Origin: Candidatus Limnocylindrales bacterium | GTDB lineage: Bacteria > Desulfobacterota > Binatia > UBA1149 > CAITLU01 | Reading direction: 5' to 3' | Assembly (NCBI GenBank): GCA_035571835.1 | Contig: DATNBU010000017.1 | Location: 106,687-170,686 of the forward strand | DNA: 64,000 nt | Part shown: positions 1,897 through 41,194 of the stretch, piece by piece | How positions within the stretch are numbered: position 1 is the stretch's first letter | Layout: the number at the start of each line of letters is the position of its first letter | Translations under genes and position numbers: made by a program | The notes under the pieces: model-generated | Databases searched by the model: none | What the model was told of the DNA's origin: nothing | What the model saw: the letters and a program-made list of their open reading frames with translations, nothing else

Positions 1897-2013
1897 CCAC
1901 TCGGTCTAAATCGACACTCAACTTCCCTTGAGGTAAAGTGTTGTGAAAACATGGCTGCTCTCCTGCGTTGCTGAAGACTCCGTACTGGACGAGTCGGCCG
2001 AGGGGCCGACGAG

Positions 2014-2823
2014 ATGGGCCAGTGGGTCAAGAAAGAATACAGCAACAAACGGATCAACGATGCCGCGGCACAACTTGCGCCTTGGTGGCTTCGTCCAGAC
2101 CGCTCCGCTGCAGACGCAATGGCAGAGGCATACGACGTCGTCGATAACTGGCGGGCTTCACACTCCTTTCCCCTCAACCACTTCCAAGATTCACTGAGGA
2201 AACGGTCACGAAAGGTCGATTCGAATGTCATCGTAGCGCGGCGGCTTAAACGCATGCCGTCCGTGTTAGCAAAGCTCGCTAGGTCTCCCTACCCGGTGAC
2301 AACTATGCAGGATCTAGGCGGCTGTCGCGCGATATTAGGCTCTATGCGTGAGGTTAACGCTGTCCTCGACACATTTATTGGTGAGCCGTCCCTATTTCCG
2401 CTGGAAGGGACTCCGCGTCATTACAATTACATACAGAAACCAAAAGCAGACGGTTATCGAGGTATTCACATCGTTGGCCGCTACAAAGCCAAGTCGCAGC
2501 AAACAAGCTTTTGGAGTGGGTATAGGATTGAGATTCAACTCAGGACCGTCCTGCAGCACGCGTGTTCGACAGCCGTTGAAACAGTCGCGACATTTACTGG
2601 GTTTCCACTCAAATTCGGCAAAGGACCGGATGACTGGAAGCGGTTTTTTGTGCTCGCCTCTTCTGCCTTCGCGATTCTCGAGCGCAGCCCCCTCTGCCCG
2701 GGAGCCCCTGAAGACTCCGAAGAAGATACAGCCTCGACCGCTCCCCTCCCCTTCGTCGTCGGGTCTTTCCCCGCTCGGAGCGCCGCCGAAGCGCCGGACG
2801 TTTACGGTGCCTGGCTCCCTTAA
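2014..2823 (+). CDS. RelA/SpoT-domain nucleotidyltransferase, stand-alone small-alarmone-synthetase-like (toxSAS-like), 269 aa
   Basis: Synthetase-fold motifs are present in canonical order: basic ATP-binding stretch RRLKRMPSVLAKLAR, DLGGCRAIL (the DxxGxR-type G-loop), NYIQKPKADGYRGIHIV, and the diagnostic EIQLRT. No HD hydrolase domain. A GAGGGG RBS-like purine run lies 8-13 nt upstream. The gene sits in the low-GC island. Confidence 0.75.
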   Translation: MGQWVKKEYSNKRINDAAAQLAPWWLRPDRSAADAMAEAYDVVDNWRASHSFPLNHFQDSLRKRSRKVDSNVIVARRLKRMPSVLAKLARSPYPVTTMQDLGGCRAILGSMREVNAVLDTFIGEPSLFPLEGTPRHYNYIQKPKADGYRGIHIVGRYKAKSQQTSFWSGYRIEIQLRTVLQHACSTAVETVATFTGFPLKFGKGPDDWKRFFVLASSAFAILERSPLCPGAPEDSEEDTASTAPLPFVVGSFPARSAAEAPDVYGAWLP

Positions 2824-3099
2824 AAGCTGAGTCATCATGACTCCCACAGTACATGTTCGTGAAGGATCAGATCGTCGCAAACCTTCTGACCCGGAGACTA
2901 CGGCGGCTTGATGACCGGCGGGCGGCCTGCCCCGGAGTCGGATCGTCGTATGGCAATGCGGCCCCCAGGTGCCTTGCCGACGCCCACAACTGGCCCGGCC
3001 AAGGGGCTTCGGGTTTCTCTTAAGTTGGCCACAGCAGTATGGATCTCAGTAGGTGGTTTTTATCGCACAGGGGACGTATTCCAGCTATGAATCCTGTAC

Positions 3100-3140
3100 A
3101 TTACTTGCCAGCAGTGGCCTTGGCATATATAGAGGCGCGT
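3100..3140 (+). promoter_or_regulatory. Putative sigma70-like promoter (TTGCCA-N15-TATATA) with overlapping TGCCA-N10-TGGCA inverted repeat
   Basis: Read directly in the AT-richer spacer between the RelA/SpoT-like gene and the small ORF. Spacer length is suboptimal (15 nt). Confidence 0.2.
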
Positions 3141-3176
3141 TGACTCTCGCCGACTCGGGCGCATAGGGAAACCGCA

Positions 3177-3362
3177 ATGACCTCCAAGACTGTAATCTAC
3201 TCAAGTCCGCGTCTAGCTGAAGCGGTTGGGAAGAAGAGCGCCACTGCGCAGCAGGGATCATTCGAGGTGCAGATTCGTCGGGTCAGGGATGTGCCAAGAT
3301 ACCTGCGGCGACTCCGGGAAATGAAGGACAGCGCGAAGCATAGCGTTCTGCTCTTCCGTTAG
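3177..3362 (+). CDS. Hypothetical small basic protein (61 aa), candidate cognate partner/antitoxin of the adjacent RelA/SpoT-like gene
   Basis: ORF with a GGGAAA RBS-like sequence 6 nt upstream of ATG, preceded by the candidate promoter. Arg/Lys-rich C-terminus (RRVRDVPRYLRRLREMK). No recognisable family. Confidence 0.3.
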   Translation: MTSKTVIYSSPRLAEAVGKKSATAQQGSFEVQIRRVRDVPRYLRRLREMKDSAKHSVLLFR

Positions 3363-3390
3363 CCCCTCACCCTCCGCGTCTCCTCCTCTC

Positions 3391-4986
3391 ATGCCGCAGC
3401 CATCGTCCGCTCCGCGGCTATCCCCTTCCCTCACTTGCCGCGTCCATTCGATGGCGCGTCCTTTTTCAAATTTCGACTACGTCGAATCCCACTATCAGCG
3501 GGAACCCGCCATTCGTCGCATATTCTCGCAAGCACGAATGCATCATGCCCAATCCTTCGCGGTCGAGGACATCGAAGCAGACGGACTGGTCGCTGACGAA
3601 AACGCGGAAATCCATTCGTTCCTGGCGTCCTACCAAATGACAGGCCTGCAGCGTCTCTCGTTCTGGACCGCTCCCAATGACGCTGTAGAGAATGGAAATA
3701 TCAACAGCGAAAATCTTGTCGGATACGCCGTCGTCAAAAAAGACAGAGTTCCGTCACGACAGAGTCTTGCAAATGGATCATGGCATGTTTTCGAGTCGGT
3801 AATTCGGAAATACCCGGATCGACACAATTACATACCAGCCAATCCCAAATTCCCCGTAGTTTTCGGAACCAGACAGTTCCAGCTGCAAGGGGCTCTCTAT
3901 TGCCAACAAAACGGTTTGAACAAATCTTGTGCTCAGGTCGCGATTCGAAGTTTACTAGCCACGATCTCACCTGAACTCGATATTTCGTATTCGCAGTTGA
4001 ACGCGATCGCTCGCAACTATCCGCCGCTGACGCCAAGCGAAGGGCTCAGCGTTCAACAGATTAGTGGAATATTTGATAAGCTAGGAATGAAATATACGGC
4101 AATCGAATACGGTGAAGACGAATCGAGTAGCGGTGGTAGTGACAGTCCAACTGATCGCGCGGCCTTCCCTTACCAGAAGTTTCTTTACGCGGGAGTCGAG
4201 GCTGGCGCCGGAGCGTTGCTTGGATTTCGGCGCGATGCGGCAGAGCCCGCCGAACGTTCTCATATCATCCCATTCTTCGGCCATACATTTAACAGCGATA
4301 CTTGGGTTGTGAATGCAGATTCTGGCTACTTCTCAATCGGCGAGGCAATACGATACATCCCCAGCGATGCTTGGGTGAACAGTTTCATCGGTCATGACGA
4401 TAACTACGGATCTAATTTCTGCGTTCCGCGTTTGTACGTAAAACCACAAAACGTAGGGTACGTGCTCGCACTGCATAAGGCAGGATTTGGAACTAGTGGT
4501 ATTGAGGCCGAAGCAATAGGGAGTGAGTACGTTTATGCGCTACTGGGCGTAGAGACGATTAAGGATTCAACAAATCCTTGGCTCAGAAGGCTAGTCGCTT
4601 TTGCGGACCAACAGCGCGTCGTAATACGTGCAGTACCACTTACTCGAGATGAATATGTGTCACATCTGAATGCTGCTCAGGACTGGGAATGGAATCGAGA
4701 GCACTCCTCTACGCGTGAAGTAATGAGAGCCCATCTACCGGAGCGACTTTGGATGATAGAGGTTTCTCTACCGGAACTCTTCCCAGCAAATCATCGAAAA
4801 CTGGGAAGCATACTATTGAATGGGGACGGAGAGTTCGGGGAAGATCTTGACCTCTCCGAGTTCGTCTTTGCCCAATTTCCTTCGATAATCGTCTTCGCTC
4901 GTGGCTTGAGCGCAGGTGGCACTCCGGAATTCACTTTCTCCGAGAGCAACCTCAAATCACATATCCCGGTTTATCCGGGCGAGTAA
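3391..4986 (+). CDS. Hypothetical protein, 531 aa, no recognisable family (possible papain/C39-like Cys-His core is speculative)
   Basis: Long uninterrupted ORF in the low-GC island with coding-like codon periodicity. Alternative in-frame starts at 3451 (MARPF) and further downstream. No convincing RBS at 3391, so the start is uncertain. Confidence 0.6.
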   Translation: MPQPSSAPRLSPSLTCRVHSMARPFSNFDYVESHYQREPAIRRIFSQARMHHAQSFAVEDIEADGLVADENAEIHSFLASYQMTGLQRLSFWTAPNDAVENGNINSENLVGYAVVKKDRVPSRQSLANGSWHVFESVIRKYPDRHNYIPANPKFPVVFGTRQFQLQGALYCQQNGLNKSCAQVAIRSLLATISPELDISYSQLNAIARNYPPLTPSEGLSVQQISGIFDKLGMKYTAIEYGEDESSSGGSDSPTDRAAFPYQKFLYAGVEAGAGALLGFRRDAAEPAERSHIIPFFGHTFNSDTWVVNADSGYFSIGEAIRYIPSDAWVNSFIGHDDNYGSNFCVPRLYVKPQNVGYVLALHKAGFGTSGIEAEAIGSEYVYALLGVETIKDSTNPWLRRLVAFADQQRVVIRAVPLTRDEYVSHLNAAQDWEWNREHSSTREVMRAHLPERLWMIEVSLPELFPANHRKLGSILLNGDGEFGEDLDLSEFVFAQFPSIIVFARGLSAGGTPEFTFSESNLKSHIPVYPGE

Positions 4987-5017
4987 TCGTTCCGACAGCT
5001 AGGCATCACAACACCGC

Positions 5018-5773
5018 TCATTCCGAATCGCCCTGACGGTCCGCGGGCGCCGCAGGCCGCGGCTGCGCGAACAGCTCGGCGAGCTCCTGCTCGCTGAATC
5101 GGTGCTCGACGTCGGTTTTCCCGAACCGCGTCACGGTGCGGTCGCCGTCCGGCTCGACGGCTTCCATGCGGTCGACGTGCGCGCCGTGGCCGGTCATGTC
5201 GAAGTACGAGATCATGCGCTCGAGCGGCATCGAGCGCGGCGACAGGTGCAGGTGCCACTCGCTTCCGCCGGCCTGCGCATCGCCCGCATCGTGCGGCGTT
5301 TCGCTGTATTCGGCGCGGTAGAGCTCCTTCAGACGCGCCTCGTCGCCGTTGAACAGCACGACGAAGCTGTCGACGATCTGGCGCGCGATCGGGCTCGACG
5401 ACAGATCCAGCGCCTTGCTGCCGGTCGCTTCCTCCATGCGCACCTTGTCGCCGTCGACGACGAGTCGCGACCGCGACGGGCTCACGACGACGCGCACGAA
5501 ACGATGCGGCGGAATGAAGTAAATCGTCCCCGAAGATTCGAGCGGCGCCGACAGCAGCGCAAGCTCCTTCGTTTCGGTGAACTCGGCGACGACGCCGGGC
5601 GACGCGCGCATCGCCGACAGCATCGACGACAGATCGTGGACGGCCGCGGGCTCGGTCGCCGCGGCCGGCTCGGCCAGAGCGAGCGCAGCTGGTTCAATGC
5701 CGGCAAGGAATGCCGAGCCGCTGAAACCGAGTGCCGCGATCACGCCGCGAGCCGCCGCCGATAGCGCCGCCAT
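5018..5773 (-). CDS. LolA-like outer-membrane lipoprotein carrier family protein (aryl-polyene cluster type)
   Basis: ORF 5018..5938 trimmed to internal Met (MAALSAAARGVIAALGFSG signal-like N-terminus). Size (~250 aa) and position next to thioesterase/exporter match LolA-like proteins of APE clusters. Confidence 0.65.
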   Translation of the reverse strand: MAALSAAARGVIAALGFSGSAFLAGIEPAALALAEPAAATEPAAVHDLSSMLSAMRASPGVVAEFTETKELALLSAPLESSGTIYFIPPHRFVRVVVSPSRSRLVVDGDKVRMEEATGSKALDLSSSPIARQIVDSFVVLFNGDEARLKELYRAEYSETPHDAGDAQAGGSEWHLHLSPRSMPLERMISYFDMTGHGAHVDRMEAVEPDGDRTVTRFGKTDVEHRFSEQELAELFAQPRPAAPADRQGDSE

Positions 5774-5813
5774 TCGCGAAACCCAGGCCAGCCGTCGAAG
5801 CTCGAGCTGTTGC

Positions 5814-6224
5814 TCAGCCACCGATGCGCTCGACAATGCCGGGCGGCGTCTCCAGCAGCAGCCGTCCTTCGAGATCGGTGGTCGCAAGGATCGTGTGGCC
5901 GCGCGCCGCGCGCCGCCCCGTCGCGATGTTGGTGACATCGTAGAGGATCCGGATGCGATGGCGGAGGTCGCCGAACCACGCGGAGACGCGCACGTTGTCG
6001 CCGTAGCGAAGCGCGGACGTGTAGCGGCAGTGGCTCTCGACGATCACGAACCGGTAGCGCGGCCCGATGATGTCTCCGGAGTCGAGGCCGACGCTGCGCA
6101 GCAGTCGCGTGCGCGCGATCTCGAGGTACTTGTAATAGTGTCCGTGCCAGACGATGCCGAGCCCGTCGATGTCGTGAAACGGAACCTCGAGCTCGATCGA
6201 CGTCTCGCGCAGCTTGTCGGTCAT
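5814..6224 (-). CDS. 4-hydroxybenzoyl-CoA thioesterase-family (4HBT/YbgC-like hotdog) acyl thioesterase
   Basis: Hotdog-thioesterase pattern in MTDKLRETSIELEVPFHDIDGLGIVWHGHYYKYLEIART. The listed ORF (TTG at 6323) is trimmed to the internal ATG. Confidence 0.75.
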   Translation of the reverse strand: MTDKLRETSIELEVPFHDIDGLGIVWHGHYYKYLEIARTRLLRSVGLDSGDIIGPRYRFVIVESHCRYTSALRYGDNVRVSAWFGDLRHRIRILYDVTNIATGRRAARGHTILATTDLEGRLLLETPPGIVERIGG

Positions 6225-11452: not shown

Positions 11453-12256
11453 ATGCGACCCGCAACGCCCGACAACGACCGCGCGCACGCGATGCGGCTC
11501 TGCCTGCTGATTCCCCACTACGAGCACGCCGGTGCGATCGGCGCGCTGCTCGATCGCCTCGCGCGCTACGACCTGCCGTGCATCGTGGTCGACGACGGCA
11601 GCGGCAAGGCTGCTCGCGACGTGCTTGCCGAGCTCGAACGGCGGCTGCCGTGGGTGACGATCGTCTGGAGAAGCGAGAACGGCGGACAGGGCGCGGCCAA
11701 GCGCACCGGATATCGTCACGCGCTCGCGGCGGGATACACGCATTCGCTCGAGCTCGACGCCGACGGGCAGCACGACACCGACGACGTTCCGCGCTTCGTC
11801 GCTGCGATGCGCGCCAATCCATCTGCTGCCGTGCTCGGCAAGCCCGTGTTCGGCACCGAAGCGCCGAAAGCGCGGCTGTGGGGCCGCCAGCTTTCCGTCG
11901 GCCTGGTGTGGCTGGCGTGCGGATCGCGGACGGTTCGCGATCCGCTCTGCGGATATCGCGGGCTGCCGCTGGCGGCCGCCGTAGCGATCATCGACTCGGT
12001 GCACACAGGCAATCGCATGAGCTTCGATCCGGAGATGTCGGTGCGTCTGTTCCGCGCCGGGCTTCCGATCGTCACGCTGCCGACGCGCGTGTCGTATCCG
12101 ACCGACGGCGTGTCGCACTTCGACATGCTGCGCGACAACCTGCGCCTTGCGGCAACCTACCTGCGGCTTCTCGTCGAGCTGCCGCTCGCCGCGCCCGCGA
12201 TCGTGCTCGCGCGCCGTCGCGCACAGCAGCAGGGCGGAGCGGCATCGTGCCCATGA
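11453..12256 (+). CDS. Family 2 glycosyltransferase
   Basis: LLIPHYEHAG N-terminus, VVDDGS and LDADGQH (DxD) motifs. An alternative start is MRLCLLIP at 11492. Confidence 0.8.
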   Translation: MRPATPDNDRAHAMRLCLLIPHYEHAGAIGALLDRLARYDLPCIVVDDGSGKAARDVLAELERRLPWVTIVWRSENGGQGAAKRTGYRHALAAGYTHSLELDADGQHDTDDVPRFVAAMRANPSAAVLGKPVFGTEAPKARLWGRQLSVGLVWLACGSRTVRDPLCGYRGLPLAAAVAIIDSVHTGNRMSFDPEMSVRLFRAGLPIVTLPTRVSYPTDGVSHFDMLRDNLRLAATYLRLLVELPLAAPAIVLARRRAQQQGGAASCP

Positions 12257-13314
12257 CCGACCACGGCACGCTCGTCGATGCATCGTCCGACGACGTCGGG
12301 ACATCGCCCGCAGCAGTGCTTCCGAAGACGTCGGGTGCATGGGGAAGCATCCCGGAGCGAGGCTCGATGCTCGCGCTGCGGTTCATCGTCACGGTCTACC
12401 GACTGCTGGGCCGGCGCGTGTGCCTGATCATGGTGTACGGCATCGCCGCGTATTTCGCGCTGCTCGCGCACGGTGCGCGCCGGGCATCGCGGGTTTATCT
12501 CGAGACGCTGTGGGCGACTCCCGAGGGCCGTCGCGCGCTGGGCAGGCCGCCCGGGTTCCGTCAGGTGCTGCACCACATCCACGAATTCTGCATCAACGTT
12601 TTTGACCGGCTCGTGGCGTGGTCCGGCAACCTCGACGAAATCGAATTCCGCCACCGCGGCAGCGAAGTGCTGTTCGACCTCGCCAGGAGCGGCCGGGGCG
12701 CATTCCTGATCGGCGCGCACCAGGGCAGCTTCGACATGATGCGGCTGCTCGCAAACAAGTACGAGATGACCGTCAACGTGCTGATGTTCACGAGGCATGC
12801 GACGCGCATCAACACGTTCTTCGAGCAGCTCGACCCGAACAGCCGCATCCGCGTGCTCGAGATCGAGCCGAACTCGCTCAAGACGGCGTTTCTCATCCGC
12901 GAATGCATCGCGCGCGGAGAATTCGTCGGGATACTGGCCGACCGCATCCATCCGGGAGCGAGGGACCGGCCGGTCGAGCTCACGTTCCTCGGACGCCCGA
13001 CGCAGTTCTCGCTTTCGCCGTTCGTGCTCGCGGCGACGTTCGGATGTCCGGTCGTGCACACGCAGTGCATCCGTCTCGACGAGCGCACCTACGAATCGTC
13101 GGCGACGGTGCTGACCGAACGGATCGATCCGGCGCTGCCGCGACGCAAGCGCGCGGATGCTCTGCTGCGTGCCTACGCTGCCGAGATCGAGAAGACCTGC
13201 TGGCGCGTGCCGTACCAGTGGTTCAACTTCTTCGACTATTGGGCCGAAGCGGCCGAGCCGCAGAAGCCGGCGCCGCGTGAAGCCGGACGTGGCGAAGGCG
13301 CCCATGGCGGCTGA
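12253..13314 (+). CDS. LpxL/HtrB-like (lipid A biosynthesis-type) acyltransferase
   Basis: ATGA overlap with the GT2 stop. Length (353 aa) and conserved HxxxxD-like GAHQGSFD region are typical of LPLAT/LpxL-like acyltransferases found in aryl-polyene clusters. Confidence 0.65.
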   Translation: MTDHGTLVDASSDDVGTSPAAVLPKTSGAWGSIPERGSMLALRFIVTVYRLLGRRVCLIMVYGIAAYFALLAHGARRASRVYLETLWATPEGRRALGRPPGFRQVLHHIHEFCINVFDRLVAWSGNLDEIEFRHRGSEVLFDLARSGRGAFLIGAHQGSFDMMRLLANKYEMTVNVLMFTRHATRINTFFEQLDPNSRIRVLEIEPNSLKTAFLIRECIARGEFVGILADRIHPGARDRPVELTFLGRPTQFSLSPFVLAATFGCPVVHTQCIRLDERTYESSATVLTERIDPALPRRKRADALLRAYAAEIEKTCWRVPYQWFNFFDYWAEAAEPQKPAPREAGRGEGAHGG

Positions 13315-13852
13315 CACCGAGTTTCCGCCGGTGCGCGAGCTGCTCCCGCATCGCGGCAGCGCGGTGCTGCTCGCGCGCGTGCTCGGGCACGATGCGAAGC
13401 GAACCGTGTGCGCGGTCGATCCCGACGCCGGGGCGAGCTTTCGCGACGCCGACGGCTCGATCCCGGCCTACGTCGGCCTCGAATTCATGGCCCAGACGAT
13501 CGCCGCCCACGGCGGACTTCTCGAGCGCGACAAAACCCGCGACAGGAAATCGGGGACAGACACCGATTTCGCGAAATCGGTGTCTGTCCCCGATTTGGCG
13601 CAGCCGGCGCCTGACGCCCGGCCGGGCTTCTTCGTCGGGACGCGCCGGATCTCGTTTCACGTGGACCGCTTCGCGCAGGGGCAGCCGCTGGCCGTAACGG
13701 CCGTTCATCTGCGCTCGTCGGCAGGCCTTCACGCGTTCGATTGTTCGATCGACGACGGCGCCGGCGGTGCGCCCATGGTTTCAGGTGTCCTCACGGTCTA
13801 TCTGTTGGAGAGCTTCGAGGCCCTCGCCGAGGACTTTTCCGACAATGACTGA
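13304..13852 (+). CDS. FabA-like hotdog dehydratase (aryl-polyene type) carrying an in-frame palindromic-element insertion
   Basis: [14 protein letters not shown] and [16 protein letters not shown] are hotdog-dehydratase signatures. 17 codons ([17 protein letters not shown]) are encoded by the 50-bp palindrome at 13547..13596. Confidence 0.7.
13547..13596. repeat. 50-bp perfect palindromic element, copy 1 (inside dehydratase CDS, in frame)
   Basis: Same 50-mer as copy 2. Translated as [17 protein letters not shown] in the dehydratase frame (cross-checked against ORF 13408..13614). Confidence 0.9.
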
Positions 13853-14588
13853 ACCCACAACGGCAAGACGCGTGCTCGTCACCGGTGCCAGCGGCGGCAT
13901 CGGCCGTGCGATTGCCGTCGCGCTCGCCGGAGCCGGCTACGACGTCGTCGTGCATTACCATGCCAACGCCGAAGCGGCCCGCCGCACCGCAGACGAAGTG
14001 GCGGCCGTTCGCGGCGCCAGCCCCGTGCTCGTGCAGTTCGACGTCGCCGACCGCGAAGCGACAGCGGCTGCGCTCACCGATGAGATCCGCCAGCGCGGCG
14101 TGTTCTGGGGCATCGTGCTCAACGCCGGCATTCACGCCGACGCGCCCCTGCCGGCGATGAAAGGCGACGCGTGGGACCGGGTGCTGCGCACCAATCTCGA
14201 CGGCTTCTACAACGTCGCGCAGCCGCTGCTGATGCCGATGGTGCGACGCCATGACGGCGGCCGCGTCGTCGCGATCTCGTCGATTGCCGCGCTGGCCGGC
14301 AACCGCGGCCAGGCCAATTACGCCGCGTCCAAAGCCGGCATCATCGCGGCGTCGAAGTCTCTCGCGCAGGAAGTGGCCAAGCGGGGAATCACCGTCAACT
14401 GCGTTGCACCCGGCCTCATCGAAACCGACATGATCGCCGGCGCTCCAGTCGAGGAAATCGTAAAGAGAATCCCCATGCGCCGCCTCGGTCGGCCTGACGA
14501 AATCGCCGCCGCCGTTGCATTTCTGTTCTCGGACGGTGCAGCTTACATCACCGGACAGGTGATCTCCGTGAACGGAGGAATGCTGTGA
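13845..14588 (+). CDS. 3-oxoacyl-ACP reductase (FabG-like SDR)
   Basis: [11 protein letters not shown] Rossmann motif, NAG, and the YAASKAG catalytic Y-x3-K. Trimmed to [12 protein letters not shown]. Confidence 0.85.
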
Positions 14589-19300: not shown

Positions 19301-19308
19301 TGATGGAA

Positions 19309-20097
19309 TCAGCGGGACGCGGACGCGGTGTCCGCGTCCCGCTGCCACCACCATTCCCTTCCATTTCCTTTCAGCACGAGCCCCGCTTCTTCCGACAGCA
19401 TCCAGCGAACGAATTCGGCTGCATCCGACCAGCCGCGCCGCAGCGCCTCGTCCGCTGCGACCGCCGTTCCCGGCTTCGCGGGTTGTTCGTCGCCGCGCAC
19501 GCCGAACCGCACGGCCGTGCCTTCGCCGGATGACGCGAGCACCAGGGCCACCGAGTAGACGGCCGGAGGATCGTCGATCAACGAAGCAAACGCTTCGGCC
19601 AGCGTCACGTCGCCCATCACCAGCAGCACCGGCCGCTCGGGCTCGCGGTGAAGATGCGTCGCGGCTTCGAGGAACCCGCACGCGAAGCTTTCCGCCCGCG
19701 CGGACAGCGCGCTCGACGCATGCCGGTTTCCGACTGCGATCGAGAACAGACCCGACTGCGCGTTGTGTACGGTGTGGGTGAAGCGCGACGGCGACATCTT
19801 CTCGTCGTACGCAATGTTGCGAAGCAGCGGGACCGACTCGTTGATGCTGCCGTAACGCGAGGCAAAGACCGTGCGCACGCTCGACGCGGCAATTCCGCTC
19901 GTCGCGCCGTACGCCGCAGTCAGCATCGCGCGCGACAGCGTCGTGCAGCGGCGGCGGATCATCGCGGGCACGGCGCGCGCATCCGGAGCACCGTCGTCGC
20001 GCAGCGGCGCCGGCGACGCAGCCCACTCTTGCCACGCTTCGCGGCTTTCGAGCCCCGGCGCCCACGCCGACCAGTCCCGGACAACGGCGCGAATCAA
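19309..20097 (-). CDS. Ketosynthase chain-length-factor-like protein (KS N-terminal-domain protein without active-site Cys)
   Basis: TTG start in TTGA overlap with the KS stop. N-terminal WSAWAPGL motif typical of aryl-polyene CLFs. Central HTVHNAQSG but no TACSSG-type active site. Confidence 0.6.
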   Translation of the reverse strand: MIRAVVRDWSAWAPGLESREAWQEWAASPAPLRDDGAPDARAVPAMIRRRCTTLSRAMLTAAYGATSGIAASSVRTVFASRYGSINESVPLLRNIAYDEKMSPSRFTHTVHNAQSGLFSIAVGNRHASSALSARAESFACGFLEAATHLHREPERPVLLVMGDVTLAEAFASLIDDPPAVYSVALVLASSGEGTAVRFGVRGDEQPAKPGTAVAADEALRRGWSDAAEFVRWMLSEEAGLVLKGNGREWWWQRDADTASASR

Positions 20098-38874: not shown

Positions 38875-40286
38875 CGACCGGAGTTTCCGAACCTGCGGGA
38901 AGCGCGTGGGCGACCGCCACGACCTCCGGCAGGCCGCTGCGTGTCGCGGTCGTCGGCGCAGGTCCGGCCGGGTTCTATACCGTCGAAGCGCTGCTCAAGC
39001 GCAAGGACGTCGATGTCGACGTGGATCTGTTCGAGCGCCTGCCCGCGCCGTACGGGCTGCTGCGTTACGGCGTCGCGCCCGATCATCCGAAGATCAAGTC
39101 GGTCTCGGTCGCATACGACAGGCTCTGCGAGGATCCGCGCGTGCGCTTTTTCGGCAACGTCCATGTCGGCCGGGGTCTTGCCGTGAGCGACCTTCTCGCG
39201 TGCTACGACCAGGTGGTGTTCGCGACCGGCTGCGAGACCGACCGCCGCATCGGTGTGCCGGGCGAAGAGCTCGCCGGCAGCCTTTCGGCGACCGCGTTCG
39301 TCGCCTGGTACAACGGACATCCGGAATACCGCTCGCTTCCGGTCGATCTGTCGACCGAACGCGTCGTCGTCGTCGGCATCGGCGATGTCGCGATGGACCT
39401 CGCGCGCATCCTGCTGCGCAACCCGGACGATCTCGCGAACACCGACATCGCCGATTACGCGCTGGCCGCGCTGCGCACGAGCCGCGTGCGCGAGGTCGTG
39501 ATCCTCGCGCGGCGCGGGCCTCGCCAGGCCGCATTTGCCGCCAAGGAGCTCGAGGACATCGCCGAGCTGCCGGGCGTCGGCGTCAGCGTCGATCGCGACC
39601 AGGTCACGCACGACCTCGAGACCGTCGATCCGCACCACGGAACCGAGCGCCACAAGCTCGAGGTGCTGGCCGCGATCGCGGACGCCGGTGACGGCGGCGC
39701 TCGACGCCGGCTCGAGATCCGCTTCCTTGCATCACCCGCGGCGATCCTTGGCGAGGGAGGCCGTACTGCCGCGATTCGCATCCAGCACAACGAGCTGATC
39801 CGCAGTGCCTCGAGCGACGTCGTCGCGCGCGGCACCGGCCGCTACGAGACGATTCCGTGCGGGCTCGTGCTGCGCTCGGTCGGCTATCGCGGGCTTCCGC
39901 TCGCCGGCCTGCCGTTCGACGAAGAGCGCGGCATCATCGCCAACGCGGGCGGGCGCGTGCTCGACGGCGGCGTAATCGTGCCGGGCCTGTACGTCTCCGG
40001 TTGGATCAAGCGCGGTGCGACCGGCGTCGTCGGTACCAACAAAGGCGATGCGGCGGCCACGGTCGCGAACATGCTGGAAGACGCGGCGACGACGCCCGCC
40101 CGCGATGCGGCATCCGTTTCGCGCGGCGCGATCGATCGCGTGCTCGGCGAACGCGGCATTCGCGTCGTCACCTGGGACGGCTGGAAACGCATCGACAGGG
40201 TCGAGCGCGAGCGCGGTGCGGCCACCGGCAAAGTCCGCGAAAAGCTGACCGACATCGAAGCCTGCCTCGAAGCCGCCGGCGTCTGA
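38871..40286 (+). CDS. FprA/adrenodoxin-reductase-like NADPH:ferredoxin reductase
   Basis: GTG start in GTGA overlap with the mgtE stop. VAVVGAGPAGFY FAD-binding and VVVGIGDVAMD NADP-binding Rossmann motifs. Confidence 0.75.
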   Translation: MTTGVSEPAGSAWATATTSGRPLRVAVVGAGPAGFYTVEALLKRKDVDVDVDLFERLPAPYGLLRYGVAPDHPKIKSVSVAYDRLCEDPRVRFFGNVHVGRGLAVSDLLACYDQVVFATGCETDRRIGVPGEELAGSLSATAFVAWYNGHPEYRSLPVDLSTERVVVVGIGDVAMDLARILLRNPDDLANTDIADYALAALRTSRVREVVILARRGPRQAAFAAKELEDIAELPGVGVSVDRDQVTHDLETVDPHHGTERHKLEVLAAIADAGDGGARRRLEIRFLASPAAILGEGGRTAAIRIQHNELIRSASSDVVARGTGRYETIPCGLVLRSVGYRGLPLAGLPFDEERGIIANAGGRVLDGGVIVPGLYVSGWIKRGATGVVGTNKGDAAATVANMLEDAATTPARDAASVSRGAIDRVLGERGIRVVTWDGWKRIDRVERERGAATGKVREKLTDIEACLEAAGV

Positions 40287-40292
40287 GCTGGA

Positions 40293-40342
40293 AAATCGGG
40301 GACAGACACCGATTTCGCGAAATCGGTGTCTGTCCCCGATTT
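40293..40342. repeat. 50-bp perfect palindromic element, copy 2 (intergenic, between convergent genes)
   Basis: AAATCGGGGACAGACACCGATTTCGCGAAATCGGTGTCTGTCCCCGATTT, identical to copy 1. Each 23-bp arm is itself an imperfect palindrome. Coordinates derived from the ORF 39857 frame. Confidence 0.9.
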
Positions 40343-40354
40343 CGGCTAGCGGCG

Positions 40355-41194
40355 TCAGATCTCTTCGAAAAGCGTGCGGTACGAAATCAGCTCGACGTTG
40401 CTCGTCGCGAGCGCGTCGCGTACGCGGCGGCTGGTGACGATCGCCGCCTCGGCGACGCCGTCGAACTGCGGCAGCAGCGAGCCGGGCCGCGCGACCAGCT
40501 CGGTGACGCCGGACGGCAGCGACGACAGCCGCTTTGCCACATCGCCTTCGGTGGCCGGACGGATCGGGCTCAGCACGTCGACACGATCGGGGCCGACGAA
40601 CGACCGCGCGCGAAAACCGCCGTAACGGATCATCGTGCCGATCAGGTCGCGCTCGACGCGCGCTTCGAAGCTCTGCGGTCCCGAGCGCTTCTCGTAATCG
40701 ACGAGATGCGTGCACGGCCGCCGCAGCGCGTGGATCGGATAGTCCTCGGCCAGCTCCTTCAGCAGCGAAAGCACCGTCGGATGCAGATGCAGGTTGTGGT
40801 GGCCGGTGACGAAGCTGAGGTACAGGCTCGTCGACAGAAACTTCTCGACCTGCGCGCGGATTTCGGCCTTGAGCTGATCGCGAAGGCCGCCGCTGCGGCG
40901 GTAATGCCACGCGGCTTCGAGCGGCCGGTCGACGAATCGCCCGGTGCTGTCGACGAGGTCGCGGATGTGACGGCGCGGCAGCGTGGAGTGCCCGTCGCAC
41001 AGGACCAGCTGCAGGCCGACCGACAGGCCAGGCCGGATGCGTGCCGCCACCGCCGCCGAATGCGAACCGGTCGCAGAGACCCGCAGGCTTGCGCTCGTCA
41101 CCACGCCGCTTTCGTACCCGGCAACGACAGCGTCGTTGATCTCGGGCCAGAGACCGAAGTCATCGGCAGTAATGATGAGGCGGGGTTTCTTCAT
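40355..41194 (-). CDS. YdjC/ChbG-family carbohydrate deacetylase (HpnK-like)
   Basis: MKKPRLIITADDFGL N-terminus is the YdjC signature. Confidence 0.75.
   Translation of the reverse strand: MKKPRLIITADDFGLWPEINDAVVAGYESGVVTSASLRVSATGSHSAAVAARIRPGLSVGLQLVLCDGHSTLPRRHIRDLVDSTGRFVDRPLEAAWHYRRSGGLRDQLKAEIRAQVEKFLSTSLYLSFVTGHHNLHLHPTVLSLLKELAEDYPIHALRRPCTHLVDYEKRSGPQSFEARVERDLIGTMIRYGGFRARSFVGPDRVDVLSPIRPATEGDVAKRLSSLPSGVTELVARPGSLLPQFDGVAEAAIVTSRRVRDALATSNVELISYRTLFEEI

Follow-up and report, generated by a model that had tools for sequence, protein, structure and literature searches.

The described systems closest to the repeat analysed here are the TIRYT and REP/REPIN-RAYT families, and the palindromic elements of Rickettsia. 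Di Nocera et al. 2013 (PMC3733652) described 'TIRYT' tyrosine transposases that are flanked by inverted repeats sharing the sequence GGGGWSAS. The repeats, some of them self-complementary, are found as singles, dimers and clusters. The REP/REPIN-RAYT systems (Nunvar 2010; Bertels and Rainey 2011, PMC3116915; RAREFAN 10.1101/2022.05.22.493013) have short imperfect palindromic units arranged as inverted doublets. Their dispersed copies are mostly intergenic near the 3′ ends of genes, lack target duplications and are associated with Y1 transposases, and canonical REPs carry a GTAG (or CGTC) tag. REPIN-RAYT systems are described as mostly vertically inherited. Intragenic REP dimers encoding 20–30 residues are known, including examples in replication genes (PMC3733652), and Rickettsia palindromic elements (RPEs) inside genes are already documented (review PMC10969869).

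We have analysed a 64-kb stretch of DNA, here called the window, in which a perfect palindrome lies within the coding sequence of a dehydratase. The features to which we refer are as follows.

12253–13314, + strand: lipid A-type acyltransferase, upstream (Pfam Lip_A_acyltrans, E = 8e-10), overlapping the dehydratase start by 11 nt
13304–13852, + strand: ApeP-like hotdog 3-hydroxyacyl-ACP dehydratase, 182 aa, intact frame (PF22817, 6qsr_B, 51 homologues)
13523–13618, + strand: expanded loop, residues 74–105, 32 residues against 8 in most orthologues (alignment A2)
13546–13597, no strand: copy A of the 52-bp repeat doublet, consensus GAAATCGGGGACAGACACCGATTTCG followed by CGAAATCGGTGTCTGTCCCCGATTTC, with G and not C as the final base (from the 24-doublet profile)
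13546–13571, + strand: left hairpin unit, stem AAATCGG/CCGATTT, loop GGACAGACA, containing GGGGACAG
13547–13596, no strand: perfect 50-bp palindrome, encoding residues 82–98 of the dehydratase
13572–13597, − strand: right hairpin unit, an inverted version of the left unit
13845–14588, + strand: FabG-type 3-oxoacyl-ACP reductase, downstream, its start overlapping the dehydratase stop
40292–40343, no strand: copy B, the identical 50-bp palindrome (40293–40342) in the same doublet, filling most of a 68-nt gap between two convergent genes

The palindrome consists of two 25-nt arms, AAATCGGGGACAGACACCGATTTCG and CGAAATCGGTGTCTGTCCCCGATTT, that are 100% complementary. The preliminary description had called it a perfect 50-bp nested palindrome. 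This is borne out, and because each arm has its own 7–8-bp inverted repeat, (G)AAATCGG / CCGATTT(C) with a loop of 9 nt, the word nested is correct. Each half of the doublet is a 26-nt hairpin unit, with the core GGGGACAGACACCGATTT. The 26-mer half occurs four times in the 64-kb window, as two palindromes, and was not matched in any of 100 dinucleotide-preserving shuffles of the window. As single-stranded DNA the palindrome folds into one long hairpin of −31.7 kcal/mol (z = −9.3). As RNA it reaches −45.7 kcal/mol (z = −8.0) with a stem of 23 perfect bp. For DNA and RNA alike, none of 200 shuffles folded as well. Judged from these folding energetics, formation of a cruciform is plausible.

Two inverted units that fold into a single hairpin have the architecture of a REPIN, and GGGGACAG, which is present in both units, fits the GGGGWSAS motif. 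Neither a GTAG nor a CGTC tag is present in GAAATCGGGGACAGACACCGATTTCG, so that this is not a canonical GTAG or CGTC REP. All six reading frames of the element are free of stop codons. A rough estimate of the chance of this for a palindrome of such length and composition is 13–31%, and the absence of stop codons is therefore not taken as evidence of selection.

Copy B lies between genes for a Pyr_redox_2 reductase (+ strand, with its stop at 40286, 5 nt before the doublet) and a YdjC-like protein (− strand, with its stop at 40355, 11 nt after it). Such a convergent gap at gene ends is a classic site for REP-type repeats (PMC3733652). The preliminary description had proposed counting the 50-mer genome-wide; within the 64-kb window there are two identical copies, and near-identical doublets are also found in other assemblies. 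We have 24 distinct near-identical doublets, the 2 in the window and 22 from elsewhere. In a profile of these sequences conservation stops 6 nt outside each GGGG, giving a 52-bp element that runs from GAAATC to GATTTC.

The exact 20-mer core GGGGACAGACACCGATTTCG is present at 24 genome loci and at 40 metagenome loci. The genome loci come from two MAGs, of which one is labelled uncultured Myxococcales and the other uncultured Planctomycetaceae. Large contigs of Ga0134124 (GC 0.63–0.67) account for 23 of the 40 metagenome loci, on ~2.35 Mb, or ~1 per 100 kb. The hairpin units are found singly, in direct tandem and as inverted pairs, and most of the window-type copies lie between genes or at their ends. 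Even with looser criteria, searching the window gave no diverged units besides the two copies. No Rfam family was matched over the whole window at gathering thresholds, and a scan of the window for tRNA and tmRNA gave none. When the element was compared with plasmids by BLAST there was a single weak partial match, to flanking sequence only. On two contigs of GC 0.55 (L050 2906–2980 and L044 3342–3415) the units are 35 nt apart with AAAAAGGGGCCAGAC ahead of them, a longer variant of the element. The window also has a separate strong hairpin at 19301–19353, with 24-nt arms that are 83% complementary (TGATGGAATCAGCGGGACGCGGAC / GTCCGCGTCCCGCTGCCACCACCA) and a sequence unrelated to that of the element.

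The units are related to sequences that flank Y1 transposase genes. In a locus from a Planctomycetaceae MAG (L022), the gene for an IS200-like Y1 transposase (PF01797, E = 8e-11) that has more than 7,900 homologues is flanked by the inverted repeats GAAAAACGGGGACAGACGCGAATTGGCGG, which have GGGGACAGAC in common with the window unit. The flanks of seven distinct Y1 genes were examined (L022, L067, L068, L069, the second copy of L071, L075 and L077; L070 and L071 encode the same protein as L069, L076 the same as L075, and L078 the same as L077). Inverted repeats with the core GGGGACAGA or GGGACAGA flank each of these genes that was examined for repeats. The Y1_Tnp gene encoding protein P0067 (L077/L078) is preceded, 58 nt before its start, by GAAATCGGGGACAGATACCGATTT, which matches the window unit at 24 of 25 positions. 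This upstream unit includes the self-complementary stem, and a related inverted unit lies downstream of the gene.

We searched the six-frame ORFs of the window and of all the loci using a motif regular expression and an HMM built from 120 homologues. The only matches were in L022 and L067–L071, and there was no Y1 transposase gene in the 64-kb window or in the fetched loci with window-type doublets. The link to a transposase is therefore one of family resemblance. Two doublets 668 bp apart in another locus (L027) were considered as a possible transposase cassette, and this was rejected, since the gene between them reads as a putative methylated-DNA-protein-cysteine methyltransferase with a PCHRV motif. 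Beside its Y1 gene, L022 has three copies of a 135-bp composite block made up of GGGGACAGACGCGAATTGGC and GGGGACTGAGGCGAATTGGC units (5022–5291 and 5904–6038), two of them in tandem and 97% identical. L071 has two tandem Y1 transposase genes (1–696 and 759–1454), and in L068 a partial second Y1_Tnp fragment (5733–5942, E = 9e-14) lies directly downstream of the full gene.

A short non-coding element with perfect inverted repeats and many copies might call to mind a classical MITE, in which the fused terminal inverted repeats of a DDE-type insertion sequence are moved by cut-and-paste, leaving target-site duplications. Yet we found no excess of flanking direct repeats around the 24 doublets, and none of the copies has a target-site duplication at any tested boundary or length, as is expected for HUH transposition. 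The units are also found singly and in direct tandem, unlike the terminal inverted repeats of a MITE, and at 52 bp the element is shorter than the 70–300 bp usual for MITEs (review). Moreover, the unit matches the flanks of Y1 transposase genes, not those of DDE transposases. We consider it very unlikely that the element is a classical MITE.

The likeness to TIRtrons/TIRYT (PMC3733652) includes the GGGGWSAS motif, the inverted repeats flanking IS200-like Y1 genes, the partial self-complementarity of the units, and their occurrence as singles, dimers and clusters; it is a likeness of motif and description, and the window has no transposase. The element resembles the REP/REPIN-RAYT systems in its short palindromic units, inverted doublets and lack of target duplication, and probably also in having many dispersed copies, mostly between genes and near their 3′ ends, and an association with Y1. 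It differs from them in three ways. It has neither of the canonical tags. Classical REPINs are longer and imperfect, whereas here the spacer is a 4-nt centre and the doublet is a perfect palindrome. Lastly, the 20-nt core is present in MAGs labelled as different phyla, in contrast to the mostly vertical inheritance described for REPIN-RAYT systems.

In our judgement the doublet is quite probably a REPIN-like hairpin repeat of the GGGGWSAS class, associated with Y1 transposases of the RAYT/TIRYT type and tolerated in a loop of the dehydratase. The palindrome is one copy of a dispersed non-autonomous repeat of two inverted 26-nt hairpin units, and from its sequence it was probably moved by a transposase of that type. 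Such a Y1 (HUH) enzyme, encoded elsewhere in the genome, would most likely have moved the doublet as single-stranded hairpin DNA, and a copy would then have inserted into the loop that leads from the central helix to strand 3 in a hotdog dehydratase of the ApeP type. Since there is no stop codon and the extra loop length is a multiple of three, the gene stays open, and the protein would have gained a disordered hydrophilic segment. The data directly show that the sequence is a repeat, that it is built as a doublet and that its units resemble those flanking transposase genes, as well as its place in the modelled loop and the purifying selection on the host gene; movement by the transposase, and when and exactly where the insertion took place, are inferred.

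The host protein is identical to NCBI HXC50678.1 (182 aa, from a MAG labelled 'Candidatus Limnocylindrales bacterium'). It matches Pfam PF22817 (ApeP dehydratase) at 29 bits against a cut-off of 27, with a match that ends at residue 72, just N-terminal of the insert. The best sequence match to a profile of 26 homologues is PDB 6qsr_B (E = 9e-17), and the same chain is the best fold match of an AlphaFold2 model of the protein, with a target-normalised TM of 0.81. The fold had been described as FabA-like; this needs correction, because the protein is of the ApeP type, a FabZ-like hotdog and not FabA proper. His16 and Glu60 are invariant among the 26 aligned sequences (alignment A2), and by analogy with FabZ they are likely to be the catalytic pair.

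The neighbouring genes encode a family-2 glycosyltransferase, the lipid A-type acyltransferase, the FabG-type reductase, a halogenase-like flavoprotein and a LolA-like protein, and the gene ends overlap. This neighbourhood fits an aryl-polyene or flexirubin-like lipid cluster. In sequence, fold and gene neighbourhood the host protein is like ApeP of the ApeI:ApeP dehydratase heterocomplex of aryl-polyene biosynthesis in Xenorhabdus doucetiae (6QSR chain B). The difference lies after the central helix, where 6qsr_B and most orthologues have a short linker, and the host protein has 24 additional residues.

At NCBI the source MAG is classed under Candidatus Limnocylindrales (Chloroflexota). Among named ApeP homologues the closest come from Candidatus Binatia, and the aryl-polyene-type cluster of the window includes a gene for a LolA-like protein, as is typical of two-membrane bacteria. 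The NCBI label may be wrong. In addition, 2000–5000 is a low-GC island, with a GC content of 0.51–0.57 compared with 0.67 elsewhere in the window. It contains a gene for a RelA_SpoT-domain protein (2014–2823, Pfam E = 2e-11) and one for a 531-aa protein without a Pfam match (3391–4986). Possibly the island was acquired as an alarmone-synthetase toxin or defence module.

The AlphaFold2 model has a mean pLDDT of 85 and a pTM of 0.81, and most 10-residue blocks of the core have means of 90 or above. The central helix is modelled at residues 55–83, followed by coil at 84–108 and by strand 3 at 109–118, with pLDDT block means of 58–68 for residues 81–110. The model thus places the insert in a low-confidence coil linking the central helix to strand 3, in agreement with the earlier proposal that it sits in a surface loop.

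The relationship between the palindrome and the length of this loop is less simple. Within the open reading frame the palindrome begins with the first base of codon 82 and stops one base short of the end of codon 98. The preliminary description had proposed an in-frame insertion adding 17 residues. The palindrome does reside in frame, as residues 82–98, but the unit is 52 bp and is not in-frame by itself. Neither 50 bp nor 52 bp is a multiple of three, so that the frame must have been restored by additional bases or by subsequent indels. Alignment with orthologues upholds a longer loop than in most of them, but by 24 residues and not 17. The span from GLL to RPGFF (alignment A2) exceeds that of most orthologues by 72 nt, and the palindrome supplies 16 and 2/3 of the 24 extra codons.

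Related loops differ in length and content. The closest relative, P0002 (L025, an ENA assembly), is 87% identical in alignment A2 and 82% over the local BLASTP alignment. It has the element at the equivalent site, with adjoining sequence that differs by indels of 27 nt and 9 nt. At the equivalent position P0004 (L026) has a 24-nt palindrome, GAAAACCGGGACTGTCCCGGTTTC, which is identical to the right-hand unit at 20 of 27 positions; 0.7% of shuffles score equally, and we take it to be a related single unit. Other small palindromes occur in the loops of these ApeP orthologues, with GAAAACCGGGACTGTCCCGGTTTC in L026 lying at 660–690 and CCGGGAGAGTCCCGG or GCGGGACAATCCCGG in L025 (340–380) and L026. 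Such a pattern suggests that a single site was hit more than once or holds remnants in layers.

Measured from AAHG to PGFF, the loop is 36 residues in the window protein, 12 in short-loop orthologues and 28–33 in P0003, P0007 and P0009 (L072, L073 and L074 respectively). The DNA of these three long loops has no palindrome and no similarity to the element. They were also considered as decayed remnants of it, and this was rejected, as local alignment was no better than for shuffled sequences. Palindrome-free orthologues with the same loop length had been put forward as evidence that would tell against an insertion, and at 28–33 residues these three proteins go part of the way. Because the loops of the nearest relatives are variable, the extra length cannot be assigned to the palindrome alone. 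From these comparisons the loop may already have been long when the palindrome inserted.

Another reading is that the gene has been inactivated, or that the palindrome is an artefact of assembly or a chimera. MAG assemblies can misjoin at repeats, and perfect palindromes are known to trouble sequencing. Yet the reading frame is open, and the conserved C-terminal motifs of the dehydratase follow the insert in the same frame (alignment A2). GC3 is 0.80 on both sides of the insert, and the neighbouring genes of the operon are intact and overlap the dehydratase gene. The L025 sequence comes from an independent assembly and has the same insert at the same site, which shows that the palindrome is not an assembly artefact. 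Outside the loop, comparison of the window gene with that of L025 gives dN = 0.052 and dS = 0.30, with dN/dS = 0.17; dS for the adjacent fabG is 0.37. A pseudogene or an artefact is extremely improbable. Given the same insert in an 87%-identical orthologue and the dN/dS of 0.17, the gene looks functional, and judged from sequence comparison and the structural model the interrupted dehydratase appears to remain so.

The element itself is more conserved than the silent sites around it. Between the window and L025 it shares 48 of 52 positions, compared with ~75% identity (~25% raw difference) at synonymous sites, and one of the differences pairs C>T with G>A and so preserves the stem. This could reflect a fresh insertion, gene conversion between copies or selection for the hairpin. 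The hairpin might then be kept because it benefits the host, either through the RNA structure of the operon (as an RNase III site, a translational pause or a partial terminator tuning the downstream FabG and flavoprotein genes) or through a role for the encoded peptide in the enzyme. The conservation and the apparently compensatory pair would be in keeping with this, as would the perfect 23-bp stem of the RNA and the position of copy B, which is placed where a bidirectional terminator would be. However, the T/A variant is a family-wide polymorphism that is found both paired and unpaired in the 24-doublet profile, so the change could have been inherited from a variant copy, or have come with a fresh insertion or gene conversion. 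The same sequence is also found in unrelated contexts and in all reading frames, and the insert is missing from most orthologues. We therefore regard retention for the benefit of the host as unlikely, and continue with the reading of the doublet as a tolerated REPIN-like repeat.

Members of the family are found in-frame in other genes. In L047 a window-type doublet lies in-frame inside a protein with an HTTM domain, and the Pfam match continues through the doublet. Another such doublet, in L027, encodes the C-terminal end of an Ada/AlkA fusion, whose gene lies upstream of the putative methyltransferase gene. A variant doublet containing GGGGACAGACACCGATTTCGCAGACGAAATCGGTCTCAGTCCCCGATTT is in-frame, in the Planctomycetaceae MAG CAZYDC01, in the genes for HolB, NuoG, NuoN (twice), an MFS transporter (twice) and a protein with a GH4 domain, and probably in two further ORFs. 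These variant doublets are at the following sites.

L005: 4717–4823
L011: 1082–1125 and 4445–4488
L023: 5890–5933 and 6194–6237
L024: 2549–2592 and 2687–2730
L003: 1113–1199
L006: 406–531

At least 7 of 17 sampled sites in CAZYDC01 are thus intragenic, a frequency like that of RPEs. The preliminary description had drawn a parallel with the Rickettsia elements, and its suggestion that such palindromes lie in-frame within protein genes gains from the HTTM, HolB, NuoG, NuoN and MFS examples. Ogata and colleagues reportedly found RPEs in-frame in genes in 2000. Like the intragenic REPs and RPEs, which lie in-frame in apparently functional genes and sometimes twice in one gene, the present element is found in ApeP, HTTM, HolB, NuoG, NuoN and MFS genes. 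It is set apart from RPEs by its size and its hosts. RPEs as first reported are about 150 bp (families of about 100–150 bp) and specific to Rickettsia, with a CGTC tag in the small RPE-4/6, whereas the element is 52 bp with a GGGG core and its hosts are free-living environmental bacteria.

The intragenic copies are closer to the family consensus than are silent sites, which suggests ongoing homogenisation or selection. One may go further and propose, tentatively, that the GGGGACAGAYACCGATTT hairpin family is a widespread REPIN-like system which has crossed from phylum to phylum and which, in free-living bacteria, enters coding sequence at an RPE-like frequency. The comparison with RPEs draws on the presence of at least 7 of 17 copies in housekeeping genes, the six open frames and the closeness of intragenic copies to the consensus. 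We regard this broader proposal as possible but doubtful.

Palindromic repeats within genes are already documented, and the conceptual gain is to that extent small. The locus nevertheless offers a clean case, open to dating, of a probably mobile hairpin repeat incorporated into an apparently working enzyme, and the insert has persisted in two lineages with a silent-site difference of ~30%. Such inserts break domain matches, as with the Pfam ApeP match here, and can mislead annotation, structure prediction and binning. The analysis also ties an uncharacterised repeat, seen in uncultured bacteria from soil and freshwater, to one particular clade of IS200-like tyrosine transposases, and the P0067-type protein with its flanking unit is a concrete pair of hairpin and enzyme. 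If REPIN-like colonisation across phyla is true, repeats of this kind would quite generally give rise to new loops in proteins.
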